Source of the DNA: Sphyrna mokarran | Lineage: Eukaryota | Direction of reading: 5' to 3' | Length of the DNA stretch: 64,000 nucleotides | Assembly (NCBI GenBank): GCA_024679065.1 | Contig: JAGIQG010000040.1 | Location: 6,262,001 to 6,326,000, forward strand | In this document: one piece after another, positions 3,826-19,701 of the stretch | Position numbering within the stretch: the stretch's first letter is position 1 | How the letters are laid out: each line of letters opens with the position of its first letter | The notes under the pieces: model-generated | The model's input: the letters and a program-made list of their open reading frames with translations, nothing else | Told to the model about the DNA's origin: nothing | The model's database searches: none | Made by a program: the position numbers and the translations under genes

Positions 3826-3855
3826 GAGCGCCCTCCTGTGGACAATATAACTGCA
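3826..3855 (-). promoter_or_regulatory. Putative CTCF-binding element upstream of family III V
   Basis: TGCAGTTATATTGTCCACAGGAGGGCGCTC: CCAC..GGGCGC core plus upstream TGCAGT module. Confidence 0.65.
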
Positions 3856-4099
3856 TTGGGAACTGACACAGAAATCAGAGCCCAGATATAAACGCGCCGA
3901 GAAATATGAAGATCCAGAAATATCCAGTACAGCTACAACATGGACACGAGGAAATATCAGCTCCATATCCACACCGTTAAGACCCCTTGTGGTTTTAAAA
4001 GTTTCAGTGAAGTTATCTCTTCAAAACTCCAGCCGATACAAACCTAACATCAATATTCTCATTGCTAATACAGATAAGCCGCACGTACCTGTTGGTTTT

Positions 4100-4270
4100 T
4101 CTACCCAGTGAGTCTGTGTTAAATCATCACAGTTTGTTCCTAGCGTTCCCCACTAGATACTTAAGAGATTCTGTAATTTGTTGCAGGAACCAATAGCAAA
4201 GATGAAATGTCCCAAGATCTCCCTGAATTGACGGTTCAGGAAGGACATATCATAACACAGCACTGCAGCC
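4100..4270 (+). pseudogene. Family I V fragment (donor, intron, FR1)
   Basis: GTGAGTCTG donor at 4108, TTGCAG acceptor at 4186, then GTNSKDEMSQDLPELTVQEGHIITQHCS and truncation. Confidence 0.75.
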
Positions 4271-4444
4271 CCAAAGACACACAGCTGTCGAAAAAAGAAG
4301 TTTCTCCTGTTCTCTGTTTTCAATTAGCACTTGTTTACTCCGTGACAGTGTCCCGTGTCCCCAGACTCTCCCACGAGGGGAAACATCCACTCAGCATTTT
4401 GTCAATTGAGTTTGTGTTTTTATATGCCCTGTTTGTGAGCACAA

Positions 4445-4545
4445 TATCCACTCTCCTGATGAAGGAGCAGCGCTCCGAAAGCTTGTGGCTTGTGCTACCA
4501 AATGAACCTGGTGGACTTTAACCTGGTGTTGTGAGACTTCTTACG
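4445..4545 (+). mobile_element. Penelope-like element terminal fragment with hammerhead-ribozyme motif
   Basis: CTGATGA-A-GGAGC-AGC-GCTCC-GAAA-GCTT followed by GGACTTTAACCTGGTGTTGTGAGACTTCTTAC. Confidence 0.6.
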
Positions 4546-4603
4546 TTGATTGATAAACGCAAGTGTCCCTTATGCCTTTTTCATCATTCTACTAAAATGT
4601 CCT

Positions 4604-4647
4604 NNNNNNNNNNNNNNNNNNNNNNNNNNNNNNNNNNNNNNNNNNNN
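4604..4647. other. Assembly gap (44 N)
   Basis: Run of n. Confidence 1.
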
Positions 4648-5092
4648 TACAAATGATATCTGAAAAAAAATTTCTCCTATCCGCACCGCTATTGTGTGCC
4701 TTAAGCACCAATGCCGGCAGAGGTACAGCGGATTCGGTACAAATGCAGATCGAAAGTTCCAATTAAGGGTCACATGGAACACTGCAGCAACTCACTAAAC
4801 TTTTTTTTTAGGTAGCACAATCCAAATACAAGACCACTGCCATCTAGGAGGACAAGGGCAGCAGGCAGATGGGAACACCACCACCTAGAGGTTCCCTTTC
4901 AAGTTATTTCACATCCTTTCCTGGAAATATAGCGTTATTCCTTCACCCTCACTGAGTCAACCCTGGAACTCCCTCACTAACAGCAGAACGGGTGTACCTG
5001 AAACCTCAGGGACCGCAGAGCTTCAGGAAGGCAGTTCAACACCACATAATACACTCGATTATCTTCGTGTTGTTGGGTGAATTTCTGTGTCC

Positions 5093-17046: not shown

Positions 17047-17085
17047 CACAATGAATAAGGCCCCCACAGACCTCATACAAAAACC
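17047..17085 (+). other. 23-RSS of V5
   Basis: CACAATG + 23 nt + ACAAAAACC. Confidence 0.9.
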
Positions 17086-17988
17086 GGTGCAAGTTCATCA
17101 TCAATGGTTCCGTACAAAAAAAAAGTTTTGCATCGTATCCACATGTATAGAAAATTAAGACTACAACACAGCCCAGTCTGAATTGTATTCCAGCGCTGAG
17201 GATATTGATCGTCACTGTTGAGAAATGTGGCATTTGGCGCTCAGATTACTCCCGGATCAAATTCAATTACTTTCTGATCCAATATACACAAAGACACAGG
17301 TCTCTGAGGTGAATAACTTCGTCAATCTGTACTCAACTTCGTTCTGGATCAGGTGCCTAGCTGTAAGGCGATACATTTTCAAAGACATCGGTTGTGAAAT
17401 TCAGCTTCAGTGTTGTCGCATTCTAAAGTCCCTTGAGTAGAAATAATGACCTATTGAAATCTGTCTTTTCCAGGGACAAGAGTAACCCCGGCGAAACCAT
17501 ATCTCGATGTGGAGTTCCGTGACCACTTATCCCGTATTCATAAAATACCTCATTATTGTTATACACTAGATGCACTCATTAAATACATGTTCATCACATC
17601 GATAATAAATTATTTAACTTTCTGCATTAATTAGAAAAAAAATCTATTCAAAGAAAAATTTTCACAATGAGTTCGGGGGATGATGAGTTAAACCAAGGAA
17701 CACACAGAATGAGAGAAAATGTGAGAGAGAGAAAGAGGGAGGAAGTGTAGACACCCACAGCCAGGGAGGGAATGTGACTGATGAATGTCAGCCTTATTAA
17801 ATCTTTCACTAACAGTGATTGATCCACTGCTGACATCAAAGCTGAGACACCAGCCAATGGTAGCACTGATAAACGGCCCCCAGTTTCCCAATGATTGAAG
17901 CTGCCTCTGACCTGAGTTTACTTTGAGATACAAGGCTAGAAACAACAACATATTTTAAAGTGTCGCCTTTTACTTCCAATCAGGATCC

Positions 17989-18426
17989 ATGTGTTCCCTG
18001 TGTGCTTTACTGATGATAATGGCCATGTTGCCAGGTGGGTCTGAGCGCAAATCCTCAGTGTGCGTTTCAAGGGTTATTTTTATTCACAGATTTCTCACAC
18101 ATTCTATATGTTGTTGCAGGAACCAGTGGCCAAGATTCAGTTTCCCAGGAGCCGCCTGAACTAAAGGTTCAGGAAGGACAGACGGTAATATTGAACTGCA
18201 GTTACGAAGCAAAGTATACAGAGAATAATCTTTTCTGGTACATCCAATATCCCGGGGAAGCTCCGAGATATTTACTGATGATATATAGCACGGGGAAGGG
18301 AGAAAAATCTTCAGATTTCTCCGATCGGTTTTCTGCTGATTTGGATAAAGTCAAGAAAACTGCTCCATTAAATATCACCGGGGTCCGTGTCTCTGACTCT
18401 GCCGTGTATCTCTGTGCACTGAGCCC
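17989..18426 (+). CDS. TCR alpha/delta V segment V6 (family I), intact; leader 17989-18034, V exon 18120-18426
   Basis: MCSLCALLMIMAMLP|GTSGQDSVSQ..LNCSY..LFWYIQYPGEAP..SDSAVYLCALS; promoter TGACATCA 17831-17838 plus CCAAT. Confidence 0.92.
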
Positions 18427-18465
18427 CACACTGTTACAGAGGCACAGTCAGCCCGTACAAAAACC
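18427..18465 (+). other. 23-RSS of V6
   Basis: CACACTG + 23 nt + ACAAAAACC. Confidence 0.93.
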
Positions 18466-19544
18466 AAGGACATTCTCACCTCCTCTCACTGAATCAGATC
18501 TGTGATCTGGATCATGAAATATTAATATGACTAGAACACATTAAAAAGACCATCTTGCCAGGATATTTTATTTCTGCGACGCTGAATATATCATTCTCTG
18601 TAAAATCCGTCTTTATAGTAGTTTCCCGGGTCTTCAACTGCCCTTTAACTAGGAAATCTTGGCGCTGTTATCGAAACACCTTGAACTAAATCAATCAGAT
18701 TTATTAATTGTTTGATTGAGAGAGGGAAAAGCGGATGCACAACAGATCGGTAAATGAAAGAGATTGATATTGATAATATTATGGGCAGATAGAATTCTTA
18801 TAACTTCTGTATGAACAAAACAGCGCGCTTTCAATGAGTTCCTGTGAACATTACTGCTTTTTGGGTGAATCACCCTAACTACCGCCCACGGAAACGATCT
18901 TCTGCTGTTCTGCACTGTCCTCGATATCTGCCCAAACGACCTCGGGACTGGGTGCGGATTGGGTCTTCTCGACGCCGGCCTCATGGATACATGCAGAATG
19001 TCCATCTATTAAAGCTTATTCTCCACAAGAGCCAACAATGAAAAATAAATTTCTGACTTTTCTTGCTGCAAGGCGGTACAGTTTCATTGCTGTGAACATC
19101 TAACACGATATTGCCACACTGACACAACCTCCGGGAATTCGATTTCCGAAAGCTTGCTTTGGAACTGGCATGACTTTGACATTATCGATGACTATATTTC
19201 TATTTCGTTTGTCTATCACCGTGCTTGTTTGTTTGCCTATGTTTGAAAAGATTAATTTGCTGATCTATGTCTGTGTTTGCTTCTCTGTGTCTATGTCTGT
19301 GTCGATTTTGTGCTGCACAAAACGTACACTGACCCGGGGATGGGGGCGGAGGGGACTTATTCATGCACTTTCATCATTAGCAACTCAGACTAATATATAT
19401 TGAGAATCTCCAGAGCACTTCTGGTTTTATGTTGCCGCAGTTTGGAATTGACATCAGCGTCTGTCCATATAACGGTCTAGATACATGTCTTTGGACGTTT
19501 AAGTATTAGCACCTGGTCATATCAATTTCCAATTAGCGATAGAG

Positions 19545-19660
19545 CTTTGACAAAGGGTCATCTGGACTCGAAACATCAGCTCTTTTCTCTCCTTACAGAT
19601 GCCGTCAGACCTGCTGAGATTTCCCACTATTTTCTCCTTTGGTTTCAGATTCCAACAATT
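19545..19660 (+). mobile_element. Decayed Penelope-like terminal repeat
   Basis: TTGACAA-A-GGGTC-ATCTG-GACTC-GAAACATC, a decayed hammerhead layout, followed by CAGATGCC..GACCTGCTGAGATTTCC. Confidence 0.5.
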
Positions 19661-19671
19661 TGCTTCCAGCC

Positions 19672-19701
19672 AGTGGCAATACTGTCCACCGGAGGGCGCT
19701 C
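19672..19701 (+). promoter_or_regulatory. Putative CTCF site upstream of V7
   Basis: TGTCCACCGGAGGGCGCTC. Confidence 0.65.

Follow-up and report, generated by a model that had tools for sequence, protein, structure and literature searches.

V genes at the distal end of a TCR alpha/delta locus

The window, by which we mean the whole 64-kb stretch of DNA analysed here, is the distal end of the V array of a shark TCR alpha/delta locus. Eight V segments with 23-type RSSs, plus one V relic, lie within its first 22 kb, and no V motifs were found past 21.7 kb. On the minus strand lie a family I V gene in open frame (2172-2645, ends approximate), a family II relic that has neither V exon nor RSS (3390-3647, ends approximate), a family III pseudogene with a late-exon frameshift and an RSS (7058-7577), and a family III gene with open exon frame and RSS (10103-10621). 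The plus strand carries a family II pseudogene with two in-frame stops and an RSS (16563-17085), an open family I gene (17990-18465), a family II pseudogene with an internal duplication, frameshifts and a weak nonamer (19881-20407), and a further open family I gene (21251-21736), which is the last V found in the window. The relic consists of an ATG-less leader, an intron and a few exon codons followed by a SINE-like insertion, and its region shows a 72% match to 16138-16745 on the opposite strand.

Identification of the locus as TCR alpha/delta, implied in the earlier note, is upheld by a J cluster, a C-alpha signature and delta D-J-C clusters: split leader, V exon and 23-type RSS are found together with a linked J cluster bearing 12-RSSs and a C exon of the alpha type. 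J-alpha cluster 1, located by pattern search and tiling, comprises about 90 J segments at 4.384-4.456 Mb of the contig (minus strand); behind it lies a C exon that matches the signatures given for TCR alpha, CLXTD-(X)F and CLXXXFXP (taken from an excerpt of PMC10322711). Cluster 2, located by a search with the cluster 1 transmembrane exon, lies at 3.07-3.12 Mb (minus strand), with at least 31 J segments among the matches listed and a C-alpha exon that is 54% identical. Delta-type D-J-C clusters occur at 5.36-5.38 Mb (minus) and 3.85-3.87 Mb (plus), and none was found at 4.54-4.74 Mb. The J and C elements were identified by pattern, a search with full-length TCR alpha protein having returned one uninformative shark gene model; the PDB search gave a generic V domain only, with TCR alpha among the matches. 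Ig-type C1 exons are interleaved, in agreement with the IgH-TCR linkage described for sharks in an excerpt of PMC12227049, in which CTCF is not mentioned. All four J-C clusters lie on the low-coordinate side, so that minus-strand sites in the window face the clusters and plus-strand sites face away from them.

CTCF-like motifs upstream of V leaders

Five CTCF-like 19-mer cores stand 178-235 bp before the leader starts of family II and III genes, each on the strand of its V, as had been claimed before. Those of family II are at 3826-3844 (minus), 16359-16377 (plus) and 19683-19701 (plus, divergent subfamily), at 178, 185 and 179 bp from the start codon, the first of these codons being lost; those of family III are at 7799-7817 and 10857-10875 (both minus), at 221 and 235 bp. 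The earlier starts at 3826, 7799 and 10857 were exact, and the remaining two (16348 and 19672) sit 11 nt before the 19-mer. A CTCF matrix scan, made with an approximate JASPAR MA0139.1-like table, matched all five, with 17.4, 16.6 and 19.8 bits in family II and 17.1 and 11.9 bits in family III (the site at 10857 being the weakest) at approximate p values of 1e-7 to 1.5e-5. Relative to the consensus CCASYAGRKGGCRS given in an excerpt of PMC6746451, there are two mismatches each at 3826, 7799 and 16359, three at 10857 and one at 19683. Seven window sites score above 16 bits, as compared to 0.39 +/- 0.60 in 100 block-wise dinucleotide shuffles. Four of these had been noted before and three are additional: the sites at 8522-8540 and, as its duplicate, 11650-11668 (both plus, 19.7 bits) lie some 720-790 bp further upstream of the family III V genes and point against them, the former composing a divergent pair with 7799, and the site at 15502-15520 (plus, 17.1 bits) precedes that at 16359 by about 860 bp on the same strand.

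The sites at 7799 and 10857 derive from one tandem duplication (89% over 2.7 kb), and those at 3826, 16359 and 19683 share one promoter family; the five are thus not independent but go back to two ancestral elements that duplication has multiplied. The gene at 10103-10621 is the only intact host, the other four being broken, and with four sites on dead genes the window sites themselves matter less.

In 1,022,000 bases tiled around V matches, which is a part of the locus, 220 V segments were called, 154 of them with open exon frame and RSS as judged on exon and RSS, leaders aside. A same-strand site of at least 10 bits, 200-620 nt before the exon, accompanies 31 of the 220 and an opposite-strand site just one, all gene counts being inflated by recent duplicates, some of which have 100% identity across 7-13 kb and may be artefacts of the assembly. 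Counted by V cluster, the numbers are 4 of 44 and 0 of 44, and the excess at the level of lineages is modest (about 3 independent lineages versus about 1 expected from a background of 2-3% per window). Family II apart, the five largest V families show no proximal site among the 220 segments. The idea of a general V promoter architecture does not survive these counts. Promoters of families II, III and F7 are not alignable with one another, and the site label is scattered on the V tree with 5 changes, on a quick tree of 84 rows that is weak (91 columns, 30 of 81 forks open) and does not separate gains from losses. The patchy distribution of the predicted sites fits separate gains.

The density of sites of at least 14 bits is 13.3 per 100 kb across the 5' V tiles versus 3.0 in 200 kb of V-free DNA, and in 722 kb of 5' tiles, 39 such sites face J (minus) and 57 face away (plus). 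Across the genome, the family II pattern gave 26 matches, 25 of them on this contig and one on another contig in which part of this one is duplicated, with 0 matches for the control. The element was considered as a genome-wide repeat, which is ruled out by the confinement of all 26 matches to this locus; location of the site inside the upstream LINE-like relic was likewise rejected, the homology stopping about 100 bp short as judged by eye. Nine of the 26 sites have an open V, seven a broken V and ten none, and four sites at 9-10.7 Mb are without V behind them.

Whether the core exceeds its flanks in conservation, a check proposed in the earlier note, depends on the family. In family II, the 16 genes chosen by exon (17 found, one with a replaced promoter dropped) show 9 parsimony changes over the 19 core columns versus 23.8 when promoter/intron columns are drawn at random (resampling p about 2.5e-4, columns treated as independent). 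The core has 0.47 changes per column and the V exon 0.80, as compared to 1.62 upstream, 1.08 downstream and 1.32 for the intron; the CpG of the GCGC end is unchanged throughout, whereas CpGs of the flanks show 2-4 changes. With 12 non-redundant of the 26 promoter-chosen copies, core identity is 0.89, the second rank among 343 windows. In contigs from four further organisms, no difference is listed at 16359-16374, as compared to 9 differing places in the preceding 38 nt, in a comparison that covers core positions 1-16 at a 15% threshold and by its method favours a conserved core. Conservation continues beyond the core into the neighbouring TCTGATCA, at 0.84 changes per column, and nearly all copies have G at the high-information A of position 9. 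Another promoter factor or germline hypomethylation could be an alternative source of the low divergence and the CpG survival. In family III, the core (0.84) does not stand out from its flanks (0.74-0.86; rank 35 of 343, 5 non-redundant of 11 copies); among the open genes of the family, most bear the weak form of 11.9 bits, and in one the site has decayed.

The TGCRGT element placed 14 nt before the core CC is indeed present at 3826 and 16359 (as TGCGGT at 16348 in the latter), but is found in only 2 of the 12 non-redundant family II copies. Its interpretation as an upstream module fails: the element is unconserved, position 16351 varies in relatives, and the spacing is 3-4 nt short of the usual register. 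According to an excerpt of PMC12885311, the upstream motif of the IL3 site lies 17 nt before CC, and the linker ranges from 2 to 7 bp, with the distance of 14 at its edge. In families III and F7, a better placed upstream-like motif, TG(C/T)A(A/G/T)T, precedes CC by 17-19 nt. Each of three family III sub-lineages has its own spacing for TG(C/T)A(A/G)T (17, 18 or 19 nt), as judged by eye, and the site at 7799 has an upstream-motif-like TGTAGT 19 nt before its core CC.

Separately from the promoter sites, a same-strand motif of at least 12 bits was observed 60-62 nt after the heptamer start in 12 of the 191 V segments with called RSS. These RSS-type sites reach 24.5 bits and are confined to one V clade, and their 19-mer begins 21-23 bp past the nonamer. 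Their core (0.61) compares with 0.69 for the linker, 0.84 for the upstream block and 0.3 downstream, in an ungapped alignment of 13 rows including decayed copies, hence not a clean pass for conservation.

Site direction and the role of the sites

Based on the evidence above, we consider it reasonably probable that the sites are promoter-proximal CTCF-type motifs of two V lineages, copied along with their cassettes and likely CTCF-bound, which probably serve nearby V genes by stopping cohesin locally or as points of contact. Their cores would bind CTCF and stall cohesin next to the V promoter; the stalled cohesin would raise contact of the V with J-side anchors; and V-to-J joining in the locus would probably occur by diffusion, in either orientation. 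Judged from sequence, CTCF binding is likely for the family II sites and only slightly favoured for those of family III, whereas the chances of a looping role appear even. By motif only, there are candidate partners oriented toward the 5' array, namely a CTCF-like minisatellite (4.4945-4.4951 Mb, 40 kb ahead of J-alpha) and sites that follow C-alpha. The site of a dead family II V may serve an open family I V behind it. In 12 of the 17 family II sites with dead or missing V, an open same-strand V lies 1.3-4.2 kb behind, which suggests that dead cassettes may keep the anchor for a neighbour. In the window, the family I genes lie 1.3 kb (2172-2645), 1.75 kb (17990-18465, which is without proximal site of its own) and 1.69 kb (21251-21736) behind the sites at 3826, 16359 and 19683, respectively.

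The anchor direction reverses with the gene, as the earlier note held, yet this is trivial: family II elements occur both ways (14 forward, 12 reverse) because cassettes of 3-13 kb, present as inverted duplicates of 95-98% identity, were duplicated in inverted form, and any promoter element would flip with them. It is unlikely, in our assessment, that the sites were inherited from the shark-mammal ancestor and that their direction sets V use, with J-facing sites favoured. Were it costly to face away from J, such V genes might decay sooner. The raw count of V genes with proximal site points that way (plus 4 open/7 broken, minus 10/2; p=0.036), but the signal is lost when exon-less relics are added (plus 4 open/7, minus 10/6; p=0.25; copies not independent). 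For all V genes 5' of J-alpha, the open/broken counts are plus 64/27 and minus 58/14 (p=0.15), V survival being a weak proxy for V use in each case. Strong sites pointing in both directions also speak against that reading, as do the unalignable promoters of three families and the 5 label changes on the weak tree. In mouse, scrambling or loss of the Trbv1 CTCF site, which is downstream of the V, lowers use about 6-fold (excerpt of PMC10772921), a result that speaks for that reading. Against control by direction, mouse Igk (excerpt of PMC11153149) and Trbv1 (excerpt of PMC10772921) join well by inversion, the inverted Trbv1 RSS being cut at 16.6% versus 31.7% (PMC10772921, as excerpted). The effect of inversion compared with that of CTCF loss at Trbv1 suggests that presence of a CTCF site may be more important than its direction. 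Inversional joining at Igk goes along with a diffusion-based joining that tolerates V-locus inversion (excerpts of PMC11153149 and PMC12820099). The orientation of V genes toward the four J-C clusters of the shark is mixed, and about half of the open V genes (64 plus, 58 minus) would join by inversion as read from their strands. We think it rather probable that polarity has little effect on V use.

Two further readings retain the sites and remove the recombination anchor. That the block of 19-27 bp is a promoter element for another factor (a GC-box or TGATCA binder), or a chance look-alike multiplied by duplication, with no folding role in either case, appears rather improbable to us. It draws on the two ancestral elements behind the five sites, the continued conservation into TCTGATCA and the fixed mismatch at position 9, and the result for family III; it has to reckon with a conserved block that coincides with the 19-mer, with three unrelated promoters converging on one motif, strand and distance, with in-register sequence resembling the upstream motif in families III and F7, and with a density of such motifs about four-fold that of V-free DNA. 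Alternatively, the sites may be bound and act as insulators that shield the V promoter from upstream repeats or neighbour cassettes, a role we regard as improbable. Most family II sites have, about 100 bp upstream, the end of a repeat which we take to be a LINE-like relic; this would be in keeping with insulation, as would the divergent site pairs of family III. Insulation has been suggested for upstream VH sites (excerpt of PMC6746451). It is countered by divergent family II subfamilies that keep the site despite unrelated upstream DNA, and by the lack in family II of the in-register upstream motif which PMC12885311, as excerpted, ties to insulation.

The locus is useful as a natural experiment on anchor direction and V use, family II V genes being present in inverted duplicates of 95-98% identity in which one and the same site points toward J or away from it. 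For mammals, control of V(D)J recombination by CTCF is documented; in open-access papers, no literature on it was found for cartilaginous fish. If bound, the sites would extend the CTCF principle to a shark TCR locus, via descent or repeated gain. It is very doubtful that promoter-type and RSS-type V-linked anchors date from the first jawed vertebrates and that anchor direction steers V genes among at least two alpha and two delta J-C clusters. Were direction to steer the cassette to its recombination centre, inverted duplication would rewire which chain a V joins. Collectively, the feature is real and partly conserved, and it is plausible as the equivalent in shark of V-linked CTCF sites; deep homology and repertoire bias are not favoured.

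Comparison with V-linked CTCF sites of other loci

Shih et al. (2012) reportedly found CTCF sites upstream of mouse Trav/Trdv promoters, and the shark sites are similar to these in locus type, in position upstream of the V promoter and in a direction the same as that of the V. Mouse Tcra/d has 144 bound CTCF sites for 131 V genes, many of them upstream of V promoters and 129 of the 144 facing J-C, and the polarity of the shark sites relative to their V agrees with it (excerpt of PMC5859386). Unlike the bound and mostly J-C-facing mouse sites, those of shark are predicted, family-restricted (31 of 220) and found in both directions in a locus of several J-C clusters; neither are they present at many or most V promoters nor do they mostly face J-C. 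In mouse Igk, too, V genes as well as CTCF sites are oriented either way, with deletional and inversional joining (excerpts of PMC5859386, PMC11153149 and PMC12820099), but its sites are, in the same excerpts, mostly intergenic and uncorrelated with V direction, whereas the proximal site of shark always shares the strand of its V. Upstream sites of distal mouse VH genes share the family-specific fixed distance before the leader and the V orientation, at 0.8-6 kb as compared to about 0.2 kb in shark (PMC6746451, excerpt). The RSS-type class, distinct from the five promoter sites, resembles the RSS-associated sites of mouse and human proximal VH genes in being same-strand, at fixed distance behind the nonamer and limited to one V clade. 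It differs from them in belonging to TCR V genes, in its distance (21-23 bp; mouse core 17-19 bp per the excerpt of PMC6746451) and in a spacer that is itself conserved. Shark CTCF has 11 fingers (excerpt of PMC7471279), and TAD borders in skate have oriented CTCF motifs according to a CTCF orientation code (excerpt of PMC10115646). As predicted from its motifs, the shark pattern is like that of mouse in position and strand, yet it is not the same architecture.

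An identical second copy and the J-C clusters

On the Sphyrna mokarran contig that carries the TCR alpha/delta V array (G000:C994), a 13.5-kb segment at 5272001-5285473 recurs with 100% identity at 6253131-6266603, the latter copy covering positions 1-4600 of the window, and it is understood as either a very recent duplication or an assembly artefact. Two J-alpha/C-alpha clusters are present (4378500-4455800 and 3073000-3117000); their C exons are only 54% identical, hence the second cluster is not a false duplicate. Two delta-type D-J-C clusters, one of them situated within the V array, lie on opposite strands (5359600-5381100 and 3851800-3872600), and 10 further TCR-type transmembrane exons are located at 10.4-12.3 Mb.

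The distal end of the V array

A degenerate, telomere-like CCCTAA repeat of about 3.2 kb lies directly beyond the last V gene (window 23540-26780), and past it strong CTCF-like motifs turn rare. Within the array, an intact tRNA-Lys(CTT) gene (window 14765-14840) is positioned near the change of the V genes from the - to the + strand. Strong opposite-strand motifs (window 8522-8540 and 11650-11668) form divergent pairs with the promoter-proximal sites of V family III, and seven copies of this type occur across the tiles, 1,022,000 bases around V matches. A weak CTCF-like motif accompanies CCAAT boxes in a pair of promoter-like elements that are related to each other (14.3 bits at window 1640-1800(+), 11.0 bits at 23150-23330(-)), and no V was found behind either. 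Family II promoter fragments possessing the motif, yet neither leader nor V, appear far outside the array, at 9.1-10.7 Mb.

CTCF-like motifs before J-alpha and behind the RSS

Located 40 kb ahead of the first J-alpha, a minisatellite (4494500-4495100) consists of 22-25 bp units that each constitute a CTCF-like motif, 12 of them scoring 12.7-18.5 bits and all oriented towards the 5' V array, and is considered a candidate anchor array. In one V clade (genes at 3332818+, 3340444-, 3351772-, 4912281+, 4922021+, 4925738-, 5054849+, 5445258- and others), CTCF-like motifs are placed on the V strand, 21-23 bp past the RSS nonamer, accompanied by a conserved GTTCC block in the register of the upstream motif. 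These same-strand motifs behind the shark RSS resemble the mammalian proximal VH sites.
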